Positions 12,101 through 52,314 of a stretch of 64,000 nt of DNA are shown in pieces; the stretch's first letter is position 1; each line of letters starts with the position of its first letter. The stretch is from an uncultured Pseudomonadota bacterium (GTDB lineage Bacteria; Oederibacteriota; Muellerivitia; Muellerivitales; Muellerivitaceae), in NCBI GenBank assembly GCA_963770835.1, contig CAVYRH010000003.1:160001-224000 (forward strand). The letters are read 5' to 3'. The notes under the pieces are model-generated. The model saw only the letters and a program-made list of their open reading frames with translations. It had not been told where the DNA came from and searched no databases. A program made the translations under genes and the position numbers.

Positions 12101-13717
12101 ATGAATTCAAGAACGATTTGGTCTGCGGCGTTAGGGTTGATCCTAGCTGGTGGCACCATGGTCGGATGTATCAGGCCTGTGGGAACACCGACGGTGCCCA
12201 TCCCTCCGGCCACCAATACCCCGACCACGGTCCCCGCCGGCCCCTGTACCAATGCCTACGGCTTAACCTGCACCTACACCCCGAACCTGACGGTGAGCCC
12301 ATCATCCACCTCCACCCGGACTCCCACCCCGGTTCCCTCCGCTACCGCCCCGCTTTCCGCGACGAGTACGTTCGTGCCGCCCACGGCCAGCTTCACCCCG
12401 TCCCCCACCGTGACCCATACGCCTGTCCCCCCCACGGCATCAGCCACCGCATCCTCCTCCGCCACGGCTACGGCCGATCCGTCGGTCCCGCCGACTTCCA
12501 CCCCGACTGCGACCGCCACCCGGACCATCGTTTCCACTTCCACGGTCACCTTCGTGCCGACGGCCACTTACACCCCGGTTTCCGGATGCGTCACGATGGG
12601 GACCCACGACCCTTCGCCGGTGATAACGATCGCGGTTGAACCGAATTATTACCTGGCCCGGGCCTATCCTGCCGGAACCATCTGCGGGACGGGCTTCAAT
12701 AATTTCCAAGCCTTCGTCGGGAACTTTGACTCGATTCCCGATAACCTGGAAGTGTCGGTTTATGACAACGGCACCCGGGTGGCGGACACCGTGCTGACGA
12801 TTCCCGCCTCGAGCCAAGGCTGGGTCTCGGCGCCCCTTCCCGCCTTTACCATCCCCTGTGGGGACCAGGTGGTACTGGTGGCCCATAGCCAGGGGCCGAC
12901 AATTTTCCTAGGGGCCGCCTATGGAACGGCAAATTGTGACAGCGAAGTGAAACCCCTGTCCGGTACTATGCCCTCCAGTTATCCCGATCCGGCCTTTCTC
13001 ACCTCGGGTGGTTCCTCCGGCTGGTGCTATGAGATGAGCCTGGATTCCTGCGCGTCGGGAACACCCGCCACCCCGACCCCCACTGGGACGGCAACTGCGG
13101 TTCCCTCTGCCACGCCCACGACCACCCCGCACATGACGCCCACGATCTCCGTCCCTGGCAGCGGCATTTTTTGGGGTCCGGCGGAAATTGGTTCTTTTCC
13201 AGGCGTCACAGGGTGGCTTTCCTTAGCCGTTAACGGAAGCCCGGAGTCGACAGCGGGAGTCACCCTGACCACCCCCTCTGGCAACGTGCCTTTTACTTAT
13301 TCCGGCGTCAATGGTTCCATGGCGGCCTACTCTCCCGCCTCTTCCTTCACCTATATACCCGGCGGCACCTATACCATGACGACGGTCACTTCTATAGGAA
13401 CCGCTACGGCCTCGTTGGTGGCCCCCGGGCCTGTTTCCATCGCTCCGGACGGATCCCAGGCCTCGTGGACCTACGAGGGGAATGAGGATTACGTCACGGT
13501 CCAGGAACTGTTTTCACCCTATAACTTCACGCTTCAGACCTACAACCTGACGTCGGATGTGGATTCGCCCTATTCCATACCCGCTTCGGCCTACCCCGCT
13601 TCGGGCAATTATTCCGTTTTTCCCGTGGCCCAAAGCTCGACTTATAACGTGACGAATGCTGCTGCGGGCTCGCGATTCACGGTCACCTGTTGGAATTCCC
13701 TCGACGTTATGAAATAA
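12101..13717 (+). CDS. Putative lipoprotein with Thr/Pro-rich linkers
   Basis: Hydrophobic leader ending MVGC; long T/P/S stretches between globular parts. Confidence 0.7.
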   Translation: MNSRTIWSAALGLILAGGTMVGCIRPVGTPTVPIPPATNTPTTVPAGPCTNAYGLTCTYTPNLTVSPSSTSTRTPTPVPSATAPLSATSTFVPPTASFTPSPTVTHTPVPPTASATASSSATATADPSVPPTSTPTATATRTIVSTSTVTFVPTATYTPVSGCVTMGTHDPSPVITIAVEPNYYLARAYPAGTICGTGFNNFQAFVGNFDSIPDNLEVSVYDNGTRVADTVLTIPASSQGWVSAPLPAFTIPCGDQVVLVAHSQGPTIFLGAAYGTANCDSEVKPLSGTMPSSYPDPAFLTSGGSSGWCYEMSLDSCASGTPATPTPTGTATAVPSATPTTTPHMTPTISVPGSGIFWGPAEIGSFPGVTGWLSLAVNGSPESTAGVTLTTPSGNVPFTYSGVNGSMAAYSPASSFTYIPGGTYTMTTVTSIGTATASLVAPGPVSIAPDGSQASWTYEGNEDYVTVQELFSPYNFTLQTYNLTSDVDSPYSIPASAYPASGNYSVFPVAQSSTYNVTNAAAGSRFTVTCWNSLDVMK

Positions 13718-29964: not shown

Positions 29965-31666
29965 ATGGAAGCGAACCTTACAACCCAAAGCGAACCCAAT
30001 TACCAAGGCGCCCCCAATGGCGGCGAGGAAGACCTGAACCTGCAGGACCTGGCCCGCGTGGCCCTTTCCCACCGGCGGTTCATCGGCCTGGTGTCGCTGG
30101 CTTTCCTGGCGATGGGGATCGCCTACGCCTTCCTCTGGCCCAAGACCTACGAGGCCACCACCACCGTCAAGGTGCCGGATATGTCCCAGACCGCCCAGGG
30201 CATGCTGCGCCAACTGGTGCCCATGAGCGGCAGCGGCGACCCCATCGAGACCTACGTGGAAATCTGCCAGTCCCAGTCGGTGGCCCAGCAGGTCGCCCAA
30301 GCCCTCAAGCTTTCCGCCCAGCCCGAGTACGCGGACCTGACGGACCAGGAGACCGCGAAAAAACTCCTGAAGGGCACGGTCAAGGTCACCAACGTGAAGA
30401 CTTCCAATATCCTGTCCATCGCGGCCAAGTCCAACAATCCCCAGCTGGCCACCGACATCGCCAACGCCTGGGCCCAGGCCTTCATCCAGGTCAACCTGGA
30501 CCTCTCCCACAAGGGCGCCGAGTCGAAGAGGGAATTCCTCGAGGGCCAGGCGGCGGAAATGAAACAAAGGCTCACCAACCCGGACCTGCGCCTGAACGAC
30601 GAATCCAAGGCCGACGAGCTCATCTATGCCCAGCTCCTGCAGGACCTCCAACAGGCCCAGATCGAGGAAAAGGTCAACGACGCGGGCATCGTGGTGGTGG
30701 ACAAGGCCTCGGTGCCGGAAAAACCCATTTCCCCCAAAAAGTTGCTTTCCCTGGTTCTCTGCCTGTTGTTGGGCCTGTTCGCCGGTGTCCAAGGCGCTTT
30801 CCTTTTGGAGAAGTTCCAGGACCGGGTCAAGAACGAGGAACTGCTGAAACAAGTGACGGGTCTTTCTAATTTCGCCGTGGTGCCGGACTTCCGGGAGGAT
30901 TATCCCGAGGGCATGAACCTTCCCAGCCACTGAGCGGTTCAACCCCAAGTTCCTCATCCATAACCCCGTCTTCCAACACGCCTTCTACCGGGAAAGCTTC
31001 AACGTCCTGCGCACCAACCTCACCTTCGCGCAGGCGGGCAATCCCTTGAAGGCCCTGGGGGTGCTTTCGCCGGGCCCCGATGAAGGCAAGACCCTGGTGA
31101 ACGCCAACCTGGCCATCGCCCTATCCCATGGGGGCAAGAAAACCCTGCTGGTGGATACGGATTTCCGAAAATCCTCGGTGCGAAAGGCCTTCGGGCTGGA
31201 AAACGGCATGGAAACCGGCCTGCCCCTGGCCCTCACCGGCCAAAAGCCCTGGAAGGAGATGCTGCGCCCCTCGGGCGTGGAAAACCTGGACCTCCTTCCC
31301 AACACCGTGACGCCGCCCAATCCGGCGGAGCTTTTGGGCAGCGAAACCATGAAAAAGCTCATCGGGGAAATGAAGGCCGCCTACGACTTCGTGGTCTTCG
31401 ACGGCGCGCCCCTTTTGGCCGTGACGGACTCGGTGGTTCTTTCGACCCTCCTGGACGGCGTGGTGCTGATGGCCTGTTTCAACCAAACCCGCTCCTCCAA
31501 TATCCACCGGGCCCTGGAACAACTGCGCCGGGTGGGCGCCCATGTGGTGGGCACGGTCCTCAATTACGTCCCCGTGAAACAAGGGTTTTACGGTTACGGC
31601 TATGGATATGGCTACGGCCATTACCGTTATGATTCGGAACCTTCCGAGGAAAAAGTAAAGAAGTGA
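29965..31666 (+). CDS. wzc: Polysaccharide co-polymerase/BY-kinase (Wzc-like); frameshift at ~30925
   Basis: Wzz N-terminal TM, P..PISP motif, ESFNVLRTNL after the shift, PDEGKT Walker A, DTDFR, DGAP, Tyr-rich tail. Confidence 0.88.
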
Positions 31667-31674
31667 GGGTCCAG

Positions 31675-32018
31675 ATGGCGTCCACGACTGAAAAAAATCC
31701 ACCAAAACAAGCATCGGAAAACTCCTCAAAAATAAACGGGGAAAGATCCTGGAACTCGCCCGCCTGCACGGCGCCAGTGAAATAAAGGTGTTCGGTTCCG
31801 TGGCCCGTGGGGAGGCGGACGATCAAAGTGACGTGGATTTCCTGGTCCGCATGGAACCCGGGCGATCCCTGTTCGATATGGGCGGACTTTTGATGGATTT
31901 GGAACATCTCTTGGGCCGTCCGGTGGACGTGGTGACCGAGAACGGACTTCGGGACCGGATCAAGGAAAGGGTCCTCCGGGAGGCCGTGCCGCTGTCAAAA
32001 ATCCCGGAAAAAGGTTAA
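31675..32018 (+). CDS. Minimal nucleotidyltransferase (MNT antitoxin-like), frameshifted in an A7 run; no HEPN partner
   Basis: VFGSVARGEADDQSDVDFLV, LEHLLGRPVDVVT; one extra A at 31691-31697 joins ATG 31675 to the domain. Confidence 0.8.
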
Positions 32019-32021
32019 TCC

Positions 32022-33622
32022 ATGAAAACATTCGATCTGCAATTTATTTTCCTGGCGGCCCTGGTCTTCTCGCTGGTCCTCACCCCGCTTTTCACCCATT
32101 TGGCCCGCCGCCTTCGCATCGTGGACCGCCCCGCCCACCGCAAGACCCACAAGGAGCCCGTTTCCTTCCTCGGGGGCGTCGCTGTCTTTTTGGCTTTTAT
32201 CCCGGCCCTGCTCCTGACCTTGTTTTTTTCCAAGGACTTGAATTATTTACTCACCTTTCACGGCTTGGCGAAGGCCTTCGTCATCCTCTCCGCCTCCTTG
32301 GGGGTGGGCCTGGTCGGGCTTTGGGACGACATCCGCAACCTGAGGCCCCGCTACAAACTGATGGGGCAGCTGGTTTTCGCCCTGGCTTTCGCCTTTTTCG
32401 GTTTTCATTTCGAGGTCCTTCACCTGCCGGGCCTTCCCCCCGTTCACTTGGGGCTCCTGGCCGTCCCCCTGACTGTTTTCTGGCTCCTCTCGGTGGTCAA
32501 CGCCTTCAACCTGGTGGACGGACTGGACGGCCTGGCCACTACGGTCGCCGCGGGTTCCCTCGACCCTCCTGGCCGGGGCCGCCGCCATCGTGGGGAACAG
32601 CATGGAATTGGTTTTGGCCGTGGGCGCCCTGGGGGCGGTCCTGGGCTTCCTGCCCTTCAACTGGAGGCCCGCCAGCATCTACCTGGGCGACGCGGGTTCG
32701 GGCGGCCTGGGGATGTTCTTGGCCTGCTCCCTCGTGGCCCTGGGCCAAAGCTACGGCCAGGCCCCTGCCGGGGCCGAGTCAATATTTCGGGCAGCCATTC
32801 TTTTACCAGGTTTTTATCGCGACCCTGCTGGTGGCCTATCCGGCGCTGGAAATCTCCCTGTCGGTGGCCCGGCGGCTTTTGCACGGGCGCTCCATCGCCA
32901 GCGCGGACCGGGGGCATATCCACCACCGCCTCTTGAAAGCCGGCTGGAAGGCCCAAGGCATCTGTTTGACCGCCCTGGGGCTGACTTTCCTGCCGGGCCT
33001 GGCCGCCTTGACCACCCTTGCCCACTACCACGGTTGGGCCACCTGGTTTTTGGTGGCCACCGGCCTCCTTTTGGGTTTCGGCCTTTCCGCCCTGGGCTTC
33101 TTCGACTTTTTACAGCCCCATGTGCTGGAACGCCTGAGGCCCCATTACCAGATCGCCCACCATTTCACTTCCATGCAAAAGGTCAAGCTCGGCCTGGCCA
33201 CCAACCGGGAGGATGTGCTGACCCTGGTCAACCAAACCTGCCAGGAATTAGGGGTGAAGGGCTACCGGATGATCGTGCGGGCGGACGAGCATGGTAAAGG
33301 GGGGCTGGACTACACCCTCTCCTTCGACCCAACCCGCATTGCCGAGGAGGGGGTATCCTACGGCCCCGTGGACCAGGTGCGCCTGTCGGGCGGTTTGGGC
33401 GGGGCCGAGTGGGTGTTCGAGCCCCAATTGATCGAGGAAGAACTGGACATCGAATATAGGGTTCTTTTGAATGACTTCATGCGGGAAGCCCTGGAAACCG
33501 CCGCCAAATTGGGCCGCCACCAGGCCACCCTGGAACTGCCCAGTGTCATCGCCTTTCCCCAGGGCCGGGTGAGCGGGCACGCGTTGCGGAAATCCCATGG
33601 GCGGAACAATCCCAATCGGTGA
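32022..33622 (+). CDS. wecA: Undecaprenyl-phosphate GlcNAc-1-P transferase (WecA/MraY family) with C-terminal extension; two frameshifts (~32560, ~32780)
   Basis: GLWDD, NAFNLVDGLDGLA, FNWRPASIYLGDAGS and ADRGHIHHRL motifs in three frames. Confidence 0.85.
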
Positions 33623-33947: not shown

Positions 33948-34193
33948 ATGAAAACTTCGACCATCAACCTATCCATACCCAGGGATCTCCTGGAAAAAGC
34001 GGACCGGGAAGCGAAGAAGGAATCCCGGAGCCGGTCCGAATTGATGCGCGAGGCCCTGCGGGCCTACATCGAGAGGCAAGCCCGATGGGAAAGAATCACC
34101 ACTTACTCCGACGCCCAGGTTGAGAAGATGGGCCTTGCCCCCGGGGATGTCGAAGCGATCATCCAGGAGGACCGGAAAGCGCGGCAACGGTGA
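33948..34193 (+). CDS. Ribbon-helix-helix (CopG-type) antitoxin
   Basis: INLSIP..LL...D..A.....SRSELMREALR; overlaps the PIN gene. Confidence 0.85.
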   Translation: MKTSTINLSIPRDLLEKADREAKKESRSRSELMREALRAYIERQARWERITTYSDAQVEKMGLAPGDVEAIIQEDRKARQR

Positions 34194-34708
34194 AGCAGGT
34201 CGTTTTCGACACGAATGTTTGGATTTCCGCGATCGCTTTTCATGGGCGCGTCCGGCGGCTGCGGGATGAGGCCGTCCATGAAAGGATCCGGGTGGCAGTG
34301 TCCCCGGCCATTCTTGAGGAAACCATCCGGATCCTGAGCGGGCCCAAGTTTCGGTATTCCCCTGACGAAGTGGCGGTCATCGAGCTTGAGATCAGGGAAC
34401 TTGCCCGCATGGTCCGGCCGTCGGAACATTTGGAAGCCGTCAAAGCCGACCCGGACGACGATCGGGTCCTGGAATGCGCGGTGGAGTCGGGATCCGAAAT
34501 CATCGTTTCGGGCGACAGCCATCTTTTGGACCTTGGAACCTTCAGGGGTATCCGCATTATGGGCCCGGCGGCTTTCCTTGGGGAACTTGAGACGGGGAAA
34601 GGGACGGATCCGGGGAAAGGGCCCGGTGTGGAGGAGTCCCCGGCGGCATACGGTGCCGGAGGTAAGAAAGCCAAGGGAAGCCCCGCGAAGAGGGTTAAGG
34701 CGAGGTAG
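34190..34708 (+). CDS. PIN-family toxin with C-terminal extension
   Basis: VVFDTNVWIS, DPDDDRVLECA, IVSGDSHLL. Confidence 0.88.
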   Translation: MKQVVFDTNVWISAIAFHGRVRRLRDEAVHERIRVAVSPAILEETIRILSGPKFRYSPDEVAVIELEIRELARMVRPSEHLEAVKADPDDDRVLECAVESGSEIIVSGDSHLLDLGTFRGIRIMGPAAFLGELETGKGTDPGKGPGVEESPAAYGAGGKKAKGSPAKRVKAR

Positions 34709-34808
34709 GATGATTTGCCCAAATCAAAACCTTCTTCAAACCCGCCATTGGCGTTTCGGCTGGTTTTGATAAAATAATCACAGGCAACGAGGTCCGAAAG
34801 GAAAAACC

Positions 34809-35060
34809 ATGAGCGTCCAAGTTTCTATTTCAATGCCCGATTCGGCCTTTTCGGCCCTTAAGCGGAGCCCAAAGGAATTCGCCAAGGAAATGCGGCTTGC
34901 CGCGGCGGTGAAATGGTACGAAGCCGGCATGGTTTCGCAGGCCAAGGCGGCGGAACTGGCCGGTCTGAACCGCGCGGGATTCCTTCAGTCCCTGGACAGG
35001 TTCAAAGTCACCCCGTTCCAATATGACGCAGGCGACCTCGAACGTGAAATGAATGAATAG
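34809..35060 (+). CDS. UPF0175-family putative antitoxin
   Basis: RLAAAVKWYE.G.VSQAKAAELAGL.R..FL. Confidence 0.82.
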   Translation: MSVQVSISMPDSAFSALKRSPKEFAKEMRLAAAVKWYEAGMVSQAKAAELAGLNRAGFLQSLDRFKVTPFQYDAGDLEREMNE

Positions 35061-35652
35061 GAGCTGGGTTTTCGACAGCTCCGCCCTCATCGCCCTCGGT
35101 AAAATCGACCGGTTGGACTTGATCACGGGGCTCCCTGGTGTCTTCCACGTCCCGCACGCAGTCAAGAAGGAAATCCTCTCTAGAAAACCACCGGACCCGG
35201 CCTCCCTCTGGCCGCTCGATAAAAACTGTCCCGCCCGGGTGGTTCGTACGCCCTTGGACAGGGCTGTGTTGTCATGGGATCTTGGGGCTGGGGAATCGGA
35301 AACGATTTGCCATTGCTTGAGGCACCGTGGTTGCGTGGCGGTCTTGGACGACCGAATGGGAAGGCGTTGTGCCAAGGCGATGGGTGTCCAGGTCAAAGGG
35401 ACGGTTGGACTTCTTTTATGGCTCAAAGAGCAAGGAAAACTCGATAAAATTAAACCGGTTTTGGGTTCGCTTTCAAAGTCAGGTTTTCACCTTGATCCCG
35501 CCGTATTTAAATTGGCCCCGAAACTAGCTGGCGAGCATGAAAGCGGATTAGGCGGGGAATATTCCCTTACCGCCCATGAAGCTCCCGCCGTATATAAGAC
35601 CACCACATCAAAAAAGCCCAAAACCAGGCGTCCTCAACGGAAACGCAAATAG
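35053..35652 (+). CDS. DUF3368-type PIN protein with C-terminal extension
   Basis: VFDSSALIAL, DLGAGESE, LDDR.GRR.A..MG..V.GTVGLL. Confidence 0.82.
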   Translation: MNRSWVFDSSALIALGKIDRLDLITGLPGVFHVPHAVKKEILSRKPPDPASLWPLDKNCPARVVRTPLDRAVLSWDLGAGESETICHCLRHRGCVAVLDDRMGRRCAKAMGVQVKGTVGLLLWLKEQGKLDKIKPVLGSLSKSGFHLDPAVFKLAPKLAGEHESGLGGEYSLTAHEAPAVYKTTTSKKPKTRRPQRKRK

Positions 35653-35659
35653 GTCCCGG

Positions 35660-35700
35660 TTGGACCAAACTTGACCAACTTGACCAAGTCCAGGTAAAAT
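35660..35700 (+). promoter_or_regulatory. Promoter/operator of the phd-vapC module
   Basis: Tandem TTG(G)ACCAA x3; TTGACC-18-TAAAAT. Confidence 0.6.
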
Positions 35701-35706
35701 AAGCTC

Positions 35707-35982
35707 ATGAAAAATAAATACTCCATTTACGAGGCCAAGACCCACCTCAGCGAGATTCTCCGCCAGGTCAAGAACAACCGGGAGATCGTCATTACTGACC
35801 GGGGCAAGGAAGTGGCGCGGGTGGTTCCCGCCGTGGATTCAACCAACTTTGAGAAACGCATCGAAGCCCTGAAACGGGCAGGCATTATCACTCCTGCCAC
35901 CGGCCGCCCCTCAGAGATCAAGCCCATCGCCCATATTCCCGGAGCCTTGAAGCGCTTCCTGGAAACCCGGAATCGCTTTTGA
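35707..35982 (+). CDS. Phd/YefM-family antitoxin
   Basis: SIYEAKTHLSEILRQV...EIVITDRGKEVARVVP. Confidence 0.9.
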   Translation: MKNKYSIYEAKTHLSEILRQVKNNREIVITDRGKEVARVVPAVDSTNFEKRIEALKRAGIITPATGRPSEIKPIAHIPGALKRFLETRNRF

Positions 35983-36476
35983 AATCAGCGTTCTTTGACA
36001 CTTCAGCCTTAGCCGCTGTCCTTTTCAACGAGCCCTCTTCCCCCGCGGTCCAAAATATCCTGGAAGATATCGAAACAGTCCGTGCCTCAAGCCTCCTGGA
36101 AGCGGAAATCCGGAGTGCGGCGGCGAGGGAGGCCCTTGACCAGCGGGAAGTGGACGTTGTTCTTTCCAAGGTGGAATGGGTCCTGCCGGACCGCCCCCTT
36201 TCCCAGGAACTGCGGGTTGTAGCCTCATGTGGGATCCATTTGAGGGGCGCCGATGCCTGGCACCTGGCCTGCGCCCTCTACCTGGCGGGTGACCCGGCGA
36301 ACCTTCCTTTTGTGACCCTTGACGGGGACCAAGCCAAAGTGGCCAGCCACCTCGGCTTTAAGGCGCTCCCGGGGGGATTGCCACAGGGATCGGGAGTTCA
36401 CGAGCCCCCAATGCCGTATGGCGCCGGGGGTAGGAAGGCCAAGGGAAGCCGCGCGAAGAGGGTAAAAGCACATTGA
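35979..36476 (+). CDS. vapC: VapC-type PIN toxin with C-terminal extension
   Basis: FFDTSAL, E.RS, LRGADAWHLACA, FVTLD. Confidence 0.85.
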   Translation: MKSAFFDTSALAAVLFNEPSSPAVQNILEDIETVRASSLLEAEIRSAAAREALDQREVDVVLSKVEWVLPDRPLSQELRVVASCGIHLRGADAWHLACALYLAGDPANLPFVTLDGDQAKVASHLGFKALPGGLPQGSGVHEPPMPYGAGGRKAKGSRAKRVKAH

Positions 36477-36594
36477 ACCATGTCGTAATAACAGCGGTCA
36501 TTGAGAGGAATAAGCCCTAGAGGGGCTTGTTTATGACGAAGCAAACTCACGTTTCTAAGCTTTTTGGGGATGTTTGGGGAGGTAGTGAGGCAGG

Positions 36595-36980
36595 CTATTC
36601 TTCCAATTTTTATGCAATTTGCATAAAAATTGGAAGAATAGAGACCAAATCACCGGTTGAATTGTCCTCATTGGGGACAATTCAAATAAGGGAATTTGGG
36701 GGTAGGCTGTTTATTCTTCCAATTTTTACGGATAGTCCGTAAAAATTGGAAGAATAGCCGGAAACAAAAGTCTAAAAAATCGGCCAAATTGGGGGGGAGC
36801 GTAAATTATTTACGCTTGGGGCATGAAATAGGGGTTTTGACGTTTCGGGGTGTCCGTCGGACGGACACTCAAAATAAGGGTTTTATGAAGATTTGAAGAA
36901 CGCCTTATTTTTGGTGTTTCCCGGGGAAACACTTTGGGGTCCGAGTTTTTAGGAATCTTAAAAAAATTGGAAGAATAGCC
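36595..36980. repeat. Cluster of five perfect short-loop palindromes with five copies of AAAAATTGGAAGAATA
   Basis: 36595-36641 (23-bp arms), 36657-36685, 36712-36756 (21-bp arms), 36850-36868, 36914-36932; half site at ~36962-36978. Confidence 0.85.
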
Positions 36981-37000
36981 GGGCTTAAAAGGGGTAGGTT

Positions 37001-37471
37001 ATGGCTCAAAATCCGTTAGGGGGGTTCCTCAAGGGCCTGTTTGGCCGTCAAACACCCAACCCCGCTGCCCAGGCCCCCGTACAGGCCCCTATGCCGAGGC
37101 CTCAAGCCGAGGCACAAGCCTTGGGTGTATCGGAGCAGGTTCGGGGCTCCGATGCCCCGGTCACAGCCCAACCCACTCCTCTAAGCCCCCAGCGCTCCCC
37201 AGCCACCCCGACCACCGAAGCCTACATGACCCGGAAGAAGGGCCGGAAGCTCCATAGAGATAGTTACGCGGACGCCAAAAGGCTCTACGAGAGCATCCAA
37301 CGCCGGGGGGAGGCTACCCCCGGGGACCTGGCCCAGGAGTTCGGCATGGCCCGGAGCTCCCTGGCCTATAACCTCAACCGGCTGGTGGCCAAGAAGTACG
37401 TTGAACGCCTCGGCGGCGGGCGGAGCATCCGGTACAAGGTAACGGGTGTTCCTTTGGGCAGGATCAATTGA
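37001..37471 (+). CDS. Winged helix-turn-helix protein with Pro/Gln-rich N-terminus
   Basis: ATPGDLAQEFGMARSSLAYNLNRLV..KYVERLGGGRSIRY. Confidence 0.75.
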   Translation: MAQNPLGGFLKGLFGRQTPNPAAQAPVQAPMPRPQAEAQALGVSEQVRGSDAPVTAQPTPLSPQRSPATPTTEAYMTRKKGRKLHRDSYADAKRLYESIQRRGEATPGDLAQEFGMARSSLAYNLNRLVAKKYVERLGGGRSIRYKVTGVPLGRIN

Positions 37472-37522
37472 AACTGAATAAAACAAGGCCAATGTTATAA
37501 TTTACCCGGAAAGAGGCCGCTT

Positions 37523-37762
37523 ATGGAACACCGACACTTTAAATACGACCGCATTACTTTCGACCCCGATAAATGCTTTGGGAAACCCTGCATCCGTGGT
37601 TATCGCATGCCGGTAGCAACGTTACTGGGTTATATGGCCGGCGGAATGACCATTCCGGAAATCCTGAAGGAATGGCCGGAACTTGAGAAAGACGACATTC
37701 TCCAAGCCCTCGCCTATGCCTCGTTGGAGGCTGAGGAGCGGTTCATCCCGGCCCGCCCTTGA
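37523..37762 (+). CDS. DUF433-family putative antitoxin
   Basis: RITFDPDKCFGKPCIRG.RMPV, G.TIPEIL..WP.LE..DI..ALAYA. Confidence 0.9.
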   Translation: MEHRHFKYDRITFDPDKCFGKPCIRGYRMPVATLLGYMAGGMTIPEILKEWPELEKDDILQALAYASLEAEERFIPARP

Positions 37763-38328
37763 AGTTTATCCTGGACGTCAACCTTCCGCCCTCGCTTTGC
37801 CAACGGCTGGCCCGGCATAGCCACGAGGCATTCCATGCGGGGAAATTAGGATTATGGAAAGCCACCGACGAAACCGTCTTATCCTTGGCGGAATCACAGG
37901 GCGCGGTCCTTTTGACCCATGATCTTGGTTTTGGCAAATTACTGGCCTTTTCCCAAAAGGAAAAACCCTCTGTCGTAATTTTCCGCCTTGAAAAACTGAA
38001 TTCTGAAATTTTGGAGGGAATTTTATTAAAAGATTGGGGCTTGATCGAAAGGCCTGTCTTGCTGGGAGCCATTGTAGTGATCGAGGAGAATGACGTTCGA
38101 ATCCGGCGGCTTCCCATCGGAGGAACGGGCCTTGAAGGGCTTCCTGAAGTCCATGAAGCGCCCGCCGCTTACAAGGCGGGCCCTTCGAGAAAGCCCGCTG
38201 ACCCGAGGCCCTCAAGCCGAGGGGTGAGCCTTGCGCGTGCCGGGCCGGGGGACGGAGTTGACGACGTCCCACAAAGGGCCTGGCCCAAAGCCGGGCGTTC
38301 CAAGCCGAAACCTAAGAAGCGGAAATAA
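37759..38328 (+). CDS. DUF5615-type PIN-like toxin with long C-terminal extension
   Basis: MKFILDVNLP, ATDETV, LLTHDLGFG, PSVVIFRL, VRIRRLPI. Confidence 0.85.
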   Translation: MKFILDVNLPPSLCQRLARHSHEAFHAGKLGLWKATDETVLSLAESQGAVLLTHDLGFGKLLAFSQKEKPSVVIFRLEKLNSEILEGILLKDWGLIERPVLLGAIVVIEENDVRIRRLPIGGTGLEGLPEVHEAPAAYKAGPSRKPADPRPSSRGVSLARAGPGDGVDDVPQRAWPKAGRSKPKPKKRK

Positions 38329-38423: not shown

Positions 38424-38533
38424 TGGCCTATAACCTCAACCGGCTGGTGGCCAAAAAGTACATTGAACGGATCGGTGGGGGCCGGAGTATCCGGTACAAG
38501 GTAACGGGTGTTCCCTTGGGCAGGATTAATTGA
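38424..38533 (+). pseudogene. Second copy of the last 110 nt of the wHTH gene (37362-37471)
   Basis: 10 mismatches in 110 nt, 8 synonymous; its stop overlaps the TTG start of the next gene. Confidence 0.92.
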
Positions 38534-39234
38534 ATTCTCCTACATCTTCCCAAGAAACCTCAAAATCCCCGAATAGTTCTTTGAGGGTTAATGTCGGTTG
38601 CGGCCAGACGCCTGTTCCGGGATGGCGTAATTTCGATAATTCGTTAACAGTCCAAATATCAAAGTTTCCTTTTTTACCTTCCCTCTTGTACCGCCTGAAA
38701 TTAATTAAAGATCAGCAATATCAATTCTCGTTGGTGGCGCGTGATAAATCCATTGAATGGGCCAACGCCACTAAAAAACTGCCTCTGGAGAGTGGTTCGG
38801 TTGAAGTGGTTTACAGTTCTCATATGATTGAGCATCTTGACCGGAGTGAGGCGCTGTTGTTCTTAAAAGAAGTAAAAAGAGTTTTGCGCCCAGGCGGTTT
38901 TCTTCGCCTTGCGATTCCCGACATCCGAAAACAAGTTCAAAAATATATCGAGAATGGGGATGCAGATGAATTCATCGCCCAAACACAGATTACTCAACCC
39001 CGTGCCAAGACTTTCATGGAAAGGTTACGGTTACAAATGGTTGGGCAACGAAATCACCAATGGATGTACGACGGCAAGTCTTTAACCAATCTTTTAACGA
39101 CAAATGGATTCGTTAATGCAACTGAAGTTCCGGCGGGCGAAACGAGAATACCGAATCCCAGGCCACTGGATTTGTTTGAAAGGGAAGATGAAAGCGCCTA
39201 CGTCGAGGCTGAAAACACCGGGAGTGAATCTTGA
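38530..39234 (+). CDS. SAM-dependent methyltransferase domain protein
   Basis: VNVGCG, VYSSHMIEHL, RVLRPGG.LRLAIPD. Confidence 0.85.
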   Translation: MNSPTSSQETSKSPNSSLRVNVGCGQTPVPGWRNFDNSLTVQISKFPFLPSLLYRLKLIKDQQYQFSLVARDKSIEWANATKKLPLESGSVEVVYSSHMIEHLDRSEALLFLKEVKRVLRPGGFLRLAIPDIRKQVQKYIENGDADEFIAQTQITQPRAKTFMERLRLQMVGQRNHQWMYDGKSLTNLLTTNGFVNATEVPAGETRIPNPRPLDLFEREDESAYVEAENTGSES

Positions 39235-51639: not shown

Positions 51640-51939
51640 ATGAGGGTCATCAGCCTGAGGGGCTTAAAAAAATTCTGGGAAAGTCCTGAGGGCAAGGAAT
51701 CGGAAAGCCCTTTGCGGGTATGGATCAAGGAAGCCCGGGGGGCCCATTGGAAAGGGCCGCACGACGTTAAGGCCCAATATCGAACAGCTAGCATCTTAAA
51801 AAGTGGCCGGGTTGTATTTAATGTTGGTGGGAATAAATTCAGGTTGGTGACGGTTGTGTTTTACGACGTTCAAATCGTGTTTATCCGATTTATAGGAACG
51901 CACACCCAATACGATCAAATAGACGCGCAGGAGGTTTGA
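51640..51939 (+). CDS. higB: HigB-family mRNase toxin
   Basis: MRVIS, W..P.DVK, RVVFNVGGNKFRL, IRFIGTH.QYD. Confidence 0.92.
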   Translation: MRVISLRGLKKFWESPEGKESESPLRVWIKEARGAHWKGPHDVKAQYRTASILKSGRVVFNVGGNKFRLVTVVFYDVQIVFIRFIGTHTQYDQIDAQEV

Positions 51940-51942
51940 GAA

Positions 51943-52314
51943 ATGAAGCCCAAAGTCCTTAAAACCGAAAAAGATTACGACAGGGCGCTTCGATATATCG
52001 AGGGCCTCATGAAGATTCCCAAAAGCTCCTCCCGAAACGAAGAGTTGGATTTATGGGCGACCCTTGTGGAGGCTTACGAAAAAACACATTACCCGATTGA
52101 CGATCCTGATCCTATTGAAGCTATCAAGTTTCGGATGGACCAAATGGGGTTAAAACCCGCCGATTTAGCCAAACTTTTGGGGGGGAGGAGCCGGGTTTCC
52201 GAGGTGTTGAACCGAAAGCGTCCCCTTTCCGTTTCCATGATGCGGAGTCTTTACAAAGACCTTCACGTTCCGGCTGAATCGCTCTTGGCCGAACCTTCGC
52301 CCAAGTATCGTTAA
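51943..52314 (+). CDS. higA: HigA-family HTH antitoxin
   Basis: LVEAYEK.HYPI..PDPIEAIKFRMDQ.GL, SRVSEVLNRKRPLS. Confidence 0.92.
   Translation: MKPKVLKTEKDYDRALRYIEGLMKIPKSSSRNEELDLWATLVEAYEKTHYPIDDPDPIEAIKFRMDQMGLKPADLAKLLGGRSRVSEVLNRKRPLSVSMMRSLYKDLHVPAESLLAEPSPKYR

Follow-up and report, generated by a model that had tools for sequence, protein, structure and literature searches.

The window analysed here is a stretch of 64,000 nucleotides (nt) from an uncultured Pseudomonadota bacterium (GTDB Oederibacteriota, family Muellerivitaceae; GenBank assembly GCA_963770835.1, contig CAVYRH010000003.1, positions 160,001 to 224,000), and our subject is a short peptide motif, hereafter the tag, carried in C-terminal tails of toxin-antitoxin proteins encoded within it. 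Inside a polysaccharide gene cluster, after export, chain-length, tyrosine-kinase and WecA-type genes, lie four two-gene cassettes, the second gene of each encoding a PIN-fold protein according to Pfam (PIN_3, DUF3368 as a weak PIN match, PIN and DUF5615/PIN_10, respectively) and overlapping by 4-8 nt an upstream gene of antitoxin type (in the same order RHH_1, UPF0175, Phd and DUF433). This is the layout of type II toxin-antitoxin systems, with small, co-oriented, overlapping genes bearing toxin and antitoxin family domains. An earlier note, made from the letters alone, had pointed to the motif [V/A][H/E]ExPxxY with a Lys/Arg end in the tails of these four toxins and to a HigA antitoxin ending in the related LAEPSPKYR, and all five C-termini are as described there (Table 1). 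The toxins had been called unrelated; they do belong to different families, but these are of one fold, and since tails 1 and 3 share DNA (77% identity over 77 nt) no more than three of the four tails can be independent. Likewise the tails lie beyond the end of the domain, as proposed, but the linker leading to them, described as Gly-rich, is not always so in relatives. The tagged window tails end in K, R or H and hold 7-10 Lys/Arg in their last 18 residues, a count of at least 7 being reached in 79 of 3,384 gene models.

Table 1. Coordinates of the tagged toxin-antitoxin genes, their partners and the tag cores in the window (aa, amino acids).
Feature	Position	Strand	Details
RHH antitoxin-type gene, untagged, first of pair 1	33948..34193	+	Pfam RHH_1 E 1.8e-09; 4-nt overlap with next gene
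PIN_3 putative toxin, 172 aa, tagged tail	34190..34708	+	PF13470 E 4.9e-18; TIGR00305; residues 138-172 pLDDT <50
Tag core VEESPAAY, then 18 residues with 7 K/R	34628..34651	+	
UPF0175 antitoxin-type gene, first of pair 2	34809..35060	+	PF03683 E 9.5e-26
DUF3368 PIN-like putative toxin, 199 aa, tagged tail	35053..35652	+	PF11848 E 4.7e-11
Tag core AHEAPAVY, then 18 residues with 10 K/R	35572..35595	+	
Phd/YefM antitoxin, first of pair 3	35707..35982	+	PF02604 E 4.2e-12
PIN (VapC-like) putative toxin, 165 aa, tagged tail	35979..36476	+	PF01850 E 4.9e-10
Tag core VHEPPMPY, tail of shared DNA ancestry with tail 1	36396..36419	+	77% identity over 77 nt
DUF433 antitoxin-type gene, first of pair 4	37523..37762	+	PF04255 E 9.9e-24
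DUF5615 PIN-like putative toxin, 189 aa, tagged tail	37759..38328	+	PF18480 E 1e-21
Tag core VHEAPAAY	38149..38172	+	
In-frame extra stretch (net 30 aa) between core and basic end of DUF5615 protein	38194..38286	+	Absent from near-identical 159-aa protein P0132
HigB toxin, untagged first gene	51640..51939	+	PF09907 E 3.6e-28
HigA antitoxin with short-form end LAEPSPKYR	51943..52314	+	Core 52285-52308; LAEPSPKYR codons 52285-52311

A strict form of the motif, which reads [VA]x-E-x-P-x-x-Y plus Lys/Arg in the four window genes, gave 10 matches in the 26,417 open reading frames (ORFs) of the genome against 3.8 expected, with four of the ten inside the 3.7 kb of the window that hold the cassettes and a fifth in a HEPN gene on another contig. 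Since this pattern was defined post hoc, a matrix was built from 13 tags of other genomes, and the six best of 5,793 candidate ORFs scored with it were the four window genes, the HEPN gene and an AEP-TOTE defence primase, as against 0-2 matches at the score of those six with each of 8 column-shuffled matrices; some training tags came from orthologues of the window genes, so the test is not fully independent. A tail-only profile proved too weak for large protein libraries, returning 18 matches among 7,985 scored candidates, and 9 in another search, nearly all of them training proteins or their close kin, whilst a five-sequence tail profile over 31 genomes returned mostly chance matches (E 0.03-1). 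No usable match to the tail was obtained in the ESM Atlas and none among PDB chains at E 10, and in the proteins scanned the tail was not covered by any Pfam or NCBIfam model, the family models ending before it. One response regulator (G000 C19:452591-453295) also ends with the E-x4-Y spacing, in LTEPGVGYR, probably by chance; this end is presumably the wing of an OmpR-type domain.

The tag is an optional addition to the proteins that carry it. Among 120 PIN_3 homologues, E-x4-Y was found in 11, which are the 11 closest and have linkers of differing length, and was absent from the other 109; in a tree built from the domains of 60 of these homologues, the 11 tagged proteins made up one side of a branch with weak support (86/0). 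For HigA, 111 of 120 homologues could be anchored (nine lacked an anchor), 48 of them having little or no extension and 63 an extension of at least 8 residues. E-x4-Y stood in exact register in 50 of these 63, Glu being present in 56 and Tyr in 53, and the positions between them varied. In the AlphaFold model the tail of the PIN_3 protein (residues 138-172) is disordered, with a three-residue turn at P-A-A, and the end of HigA shows a similar turn at low confidence; such a helical turn of three residues lies at or before the Tyr in the models. The basic end was kept in frame across several tail insertions, a count without a denominator. A long Lys/Arg run is mostly a feature of this bacterial family, and the short forms in HigA and Uma2 lack it yet keep the Glu and Tyr.

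Across 18 tags the third codon positions are variable, and of the 27 codons compared between tails 1 and 3, 10 differ synonymously and 7 non-synonymously. A DNA element as the source of the motif was ruled out by this variation at third positions and by the lack of further tail copies in the genome beyond tails 1 and 3. Because the motif is optional and external to the domain, and keeps its Glu and Tyr while linker and codons vary, it behaves as a short linear motif under selection, with the few conserved residues, the disordered optional region and the recurrence in unrelated folds (PIN, HEPN, HepT, HicA, Fic/Doc, XRE, RHH, ORF6N, Uma2, Xre/MbcA, HsdR and AEP-TOTE) that characterize such motifs. 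That the tail is instead a near-neutral passenger of single origin, spread between neighbouring cassettes by recombination, is improbable. Exchange of tails probably occurred, since two tails on unrelated folds in the relative genome G069 share 32 identical terminal nt; together with the DNA common to tails 1 and 3, the clustering of tagged pairs and the untagged state of most family members, this is what a passenger would leave behind. The retention of Glu and Tyr while their neighbours and the linker length drift, the excess of synonymous over non-synonymous differences, and the presence of the motif, free of the flanking DNA, in other phyla and at N-termini all speak against it. Searching the proteome and relatives, and comparing with tail-less homologues, placed the motif outside the family domains and showed that most members of the families lack it and that toxin-antitoxin proteins are enriched in it, so the refutation laid down in the earlier note does not apply and the portable module proposed there stands. 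The motif is real, selected and portable; it is also broader than was seen in the note and is not specific to toxins.

The last point follows from the position of the tag. Motif-directed searches in the bacterial family found it on PIN_3, DUF3368, PIN, DUF5615, HEPN, HepT, HicA, CopG/BrnA-type and HI1420 proteins and on small unnamed partners of PIN genes; 34 C-terminal carriers were tabulated, 25 of them toxin-side and 9 antitoxin-side genes, and a script found an upstream partner gene for 31, the other three having mis-called starts or an uncalled partner. The tag sits on the downstream gene of the pair, toxin or antitoxin alike. It is not the toxin tag that had been supposed, being borne by last genes that include HigA, CopG/BrnA-type, HI1420 and small PIN partners and also by restriction-modification and phage proteins. 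In G069 four consecutive cassettes are each tagged on the last gene (DUF5615, small partner, HEPN and small partner). A first gene overlaps the start of the second and leaves no room for an extension; internal or very short versions of the motif are seen in seven antitoxins encoded by first genes. These carriers are otherwise ordinary members of type II and MNT-HEPN pairs (PIN/VapC, HigBA, HicAB, BrnTA, Phd-Doc) in domain and gene arrangement, the tail lying past the family models. ORF6N carriers end in RIGF-LEEPRAVYRVK.

Several carriers showed unusual arrangements. ORF6N proteins with RIGF followed by the tag lie at L020:209-871 (G000 C19), with a second, broken copy 1.9 kb away at about 2076-2180 of L020, and at L206:1340-1876. 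An unnamed protein of 79-87 aa follows PIN genes in toxin-first order (L207:10768-11031 and 12470-12709; L206:5351-5995), matches no Pfam or NCBIfam model and, in G014, is joined to a DUF5615 protein, behind the tail of the latter. Tandem repeats of 75 nt lie in frame inside a tag remnant (L080 / L206:6388-7039; L204) and recur in nearby arrays in G014. The motif was also present in the linker between a Phd domain and an addiction-module component fused to it, upstream of a ParE-like gene (L017:641-979, G000 C4), and in the linker of an RHH-like domain fused to a DNA methylase (L282:2-1051, G001).

Two further proposals of the earlier note are affected by these gene arrangements. A C-terminal extension with a key Tyr recalls the chaperone-addiction (ChAD) element of TAC antitoxins such as Mycobacterium tuberculosis HigA1, which, in the part of the source available, is likewise an optional extension of a toxin-antitoxin protein, with Y114 as key residue, and makes that protein dependent on a third factor (PMC6377645). 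That element is described there as residing on the antitoxin and being read by a SecB-like chaperone encoded as a third gene, whereas the tag occurs on either partner, mostly on the toxin side, and in restriction and phage proteins, and no third gene follows the tagged pairs. SecB (PF02556) was found in none of the 31 family genomes (the control matched in 4/14), so that reading of the tail by a SecB-like chaperone is the least credible of the explanations considered. The second proposal, that the BY-kinase encoded nearby in the polysaccharide cluster phosphorylates the Tyr, is very unlikely; it would couple capsule synthesis to toxin-antitoxin activity. The Tyr is nearly invariant, a tyrosine autokinase gene (TIGR01007) lies at 31046-31666, and five of 11 tagged loci in relatives, as judged by eye, lie among polysaccharide genes; the other six, the HEPN copy elsewhere in the genome and the phage carriers have no polysaccharide neighbours in the stretch read. 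Untagged toxin-antitoxin pairs occupy the same loci, which are insertion hot spots.

Outside the family, one narrow pattern searched over 185,579 genomes gave 69 matches, many of them due to chance and seven RtcB-like (two confirmed by Pfam). Nine were at most 10 residues from the stop of a plausible gene, and each of these nine genes was toxin-antitoxin or repressor-like (four named by context rather than by Pfam): four DUF2283 proteins, a HigA of Opitutus, a Doc of Fulvimonas, a zeta-toxin partner and a repressor-like protein of Rhodocyclales and a small FCPU426 protein. The 41 genomes of a Bacteroidota family yielded 21 matches, including four Uma2 nucleases, two Xre/MbcA antitoxins (all of these N-terminal) and one HsdR, these three types making up 7 of the 12 carriers named by Pfam; 61 Rhodocyclales-related genomes yielded six, including an HsdR and a zeta partner. 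Because such raw counts do not exceed their controls, as set out below, the signal resides in the identity of the carriers and the position of the motif rather than in numbers. With loose patterns, the rest of the phylum beyond the family yielded mostly chance matches, and the pattern VREPAAxY gave 24 matches with about three in plausible carriers. In viral contigs no relative of the DUF5615 gene was found, and seven matches to the window-type pattern included none in a toxin-antitoxin gene. Linker matches in MutL, a sigma-54 activator and a DnaE-like protein are single cases and may be due to chance; among the matches listed for the MutL of this genome, none lay in a disordered context.

The RtcB matches raise the possibility that the tag binds nucleic acid directly, Glu and Tyr gripping a guanine base and the Lys/Arg run the backbone, which would raise local concentration on RNA, ribosomes or DNA. 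The conserved nucleotide-pocket loop of RtcB (E446-A-P-x-A-Y451-K) has the same E-x4-Y spacing and agrees with up to 9/9 consensus positions; in the form E446-A-P-G-A-Y451-K (positions from the alignment) the loop presumably contacts GMP. The consensus VQEAPAAYK is matched by myxobacterial-type RtcBs, every carrier acts on DNA or RNA, and the basic run keeps its frame across the insertions mentioned above. However, the loop belongs to a catalytic domain and is held by a fold of 480 residues, and the tag is a free, disordered tail; one such match among all Pfam positions would be expected by chance, the short forms without a basic run keep Glu and Tyr, and RtcB was not found in this genome. We consider direct binding unlikely and the likeness to the RtcB loop probably convergent.

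Hardly less doubtful is a role as tether or degron in which an AAA+ protease (ClpXP, ClpCP with McsB, or Lon) reads the motif, so that its unfoldase would be brought to the complex and would then strip the antitoxin. It would work from either partner, as seen, and the genome encodes an McsB-type arginine kinase domain whilst the tails are rich in Arg and Lys. The RIGF that precedes the tag in ORF6N carriers presumably recalls the IGF loop of ClpX. The SspB-binding half of the ssrA tag has the consensus small-small-[NH]-[DE] followed by an aromatic residue, and the tag is likewise a C-terminal peptide of such form, GVHE in our view resembling the first four positions; in the tag the aromatic residue stands two positions further away and there is no LAA end. 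SspB (PF04386) was not found in this 96% complete genome (the control matched in 2/14), which makes delivery by SspB unlikely, and the tmRNA tag of this genome, ADNQLALAA, has an end unlike that of the tails. N-terminal copies of the motif also exist, as do copies within linkers inside large restriction enzymes and methylases, and a degron on the toxin would run contrary to the usual logic of a labile antitoxin.

A docking role for the tag is probable, and its reader should then be a widespread host protein. A clue to this reader came from the DUF2283 proteins and one MutL linker, in which a clamp-like peptide precedes the motif immediately, and a direct search was therefore made for the clamp motif QLxLF fused to the tag. 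QLxLF-E-x-x-A-x-Y gave 16 viral matches, five in plausible genes, four of which have a Pro that the pattern did not demand. QLxLF-EPxAxY gave eight, six of them in ORFs of more than 100 aa (two C5 methylases, two polyvalent proteins and two unnamed), as against three matches with shifted spacing and four with Phe in place of Tyr, none of these in an ORF of more than 60 aa. In metagenomes QLxLF-EPxAxY had at least 120 matches, and from the first 80 of these 35 non-redundant ORFs of at least 70 aa were scanned, without a control pattern; 13 of the 17 that Pfam could name were methylases, restriction or other nucleases or a transposase. As judged from these sequences, the fusion of a clamp-type motif to the tag in phage and metagenome proteins is real. 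DnaN is present in the genome, and in the part of the review of clamp-binding motifs available the clamp surface near subsite I is described as Arg-rich and the flanks of the motifs as mostly acidic (PMC11139829).

Much weighs against the beta clamp as the common reader, and against a common code in general. The viral counts are small and include near-duplicates, and since a clamp motif alone would pick out DNA enzymes, the 13 of 17 do not by themselves support the tag. Of 18 family tags, none is preceded by a clamp motif, and the spacing of the window tags (E-x-P-A-x-Y) after QLxLF gave four viral matches, only one in a long ORF. The Lys/Arg tail is a poor fit to a clamp surface rich in Arg, it is not obvious what PIN and HEPN RNases would do at the replication fork, and the fusion could just as well consist of two neighbouring motifs, each with its own reader. 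More generally, motif-only DNA patterns did not exceed reversed controls outside the family (21 against 19 in Bacteroidota, 6 against 24 in Rhodocyclales-related genomes), and many matches are due to chance or lie inside folded enzymes. The 34 carriers, coming from directed searches, are not a census. Only four of 33 PIN, PIN_3, HEPN, HepT and DUF5615 matches in this genome are tagged (a row matched by two families was counted once, and identical copies were retained when they lay on different contigs), so most pairs manage without a tag.

The clamp is accordingly put forward only tentatively as the reader of the tag. We would give even chances to the reading in which the motif is an optional, disordered docking tag by which one widespread host factor would hold toxin-antitoxin complexes as well as other proteins of mobile elements or defence that act on DNA, the clamp being the leading candidate for that factor. 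The motif takes the form hydrophobic-x-E-[P/x]-[P/x]-[A/G]-x-Y, then K/R, and is retained at the protein level. A single tag per pair would suffice because toxin and antitoxin presumably form one complex; recombination would move tails between cassettes, and the long Lys/Arg run of this family may add non-specific affinity for nucleic acid. At the clamp, the Glu might contact the Arg-rich rim beyond the pocket with the Tyr docking beside it. A bolder version, which we hold to be still more doubtful than the clamp itself, is a cross-phylum E-x4-Y docking code that plugs toxin-antitoxin complexes, restriction-modification enzymes and phage polyvalent proteins into the host replisome beside the canonical clamp pocket, where they would reload on, mark or monitor newly replicated DNA, one tag per pair being enough.

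The neighbourhood of the cassettes holds further features. A 111-nt direct repeat (91%; 37362-37472 and 38424-38534), which corresponds to the 3' end of a winged-helix gene, flanks the DUF433-DUF5615 cassette and suggests either insertion with duplication or a deletion-prone unit. The winged-helix gene itself (37001-37471, 156 aa) lies between pairs 3 and 4, and upstream of it two perfect palindromes with 23-nt and 21-nt arms (36595-36641 and 36712-36756) and a half site (36962-36985) are probably its operators; genes of this type are also found near tagged cassettes in the relative loci L202 and L209. In the polysaccharide cluster, the WecA-like gene (32022-33622) is split over two frames near 32570, its counterpart in L209 being a single ORF of 532 aa, and the chain-length (29965-30933) and tyrosine-kinase (31046-31666) parts are separate ORFs in the window and a single 564-aa ORF in L209. 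A short nucleotidyltransferase ORF (31788-32018) has no HEPN partner after it.

The carriers and gene arrangements are themselves ordinary, and no description of the motif was found in the open-licence literature searched. Among the closest known motifs is the beta-clamp-binding motif Q-phi-x-[L/M]-[F/L], likewise a short linear motif in disordered ends and linkers of DNA-acting proteins, for which the part of the review available describes no E-x4-Y extension (PMC11139829). The tag is found directly behind such a motif in methylases, nucleases and phage polyvalent proteins and differs from it in having no Gln and no Leu-Phe pair, the clamp consensus being present only in the fused forms of phages and metagenomes. 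A study of polyvalent proteins mentions, in the part available, no clamp or linker motif (PMC5512222).

What activates most chromosomal toxin-antitoxin pairs, and how the enzymes of defence systems and mobile elements find their place in the cell, is a largely open field. An eight-residue motif common to PIN, HEPN, HicA, Doc, XRE, RHH, Uma2, HsdR and methylase proteins suggests that all share a single host reader and offers a cheap handle for finding it. Were this reader a protease, a new route to toxin release would be at hand; were it the clamp, the known clamp motif would be extended and toxin-antitoxin pairs would be tied to replication.

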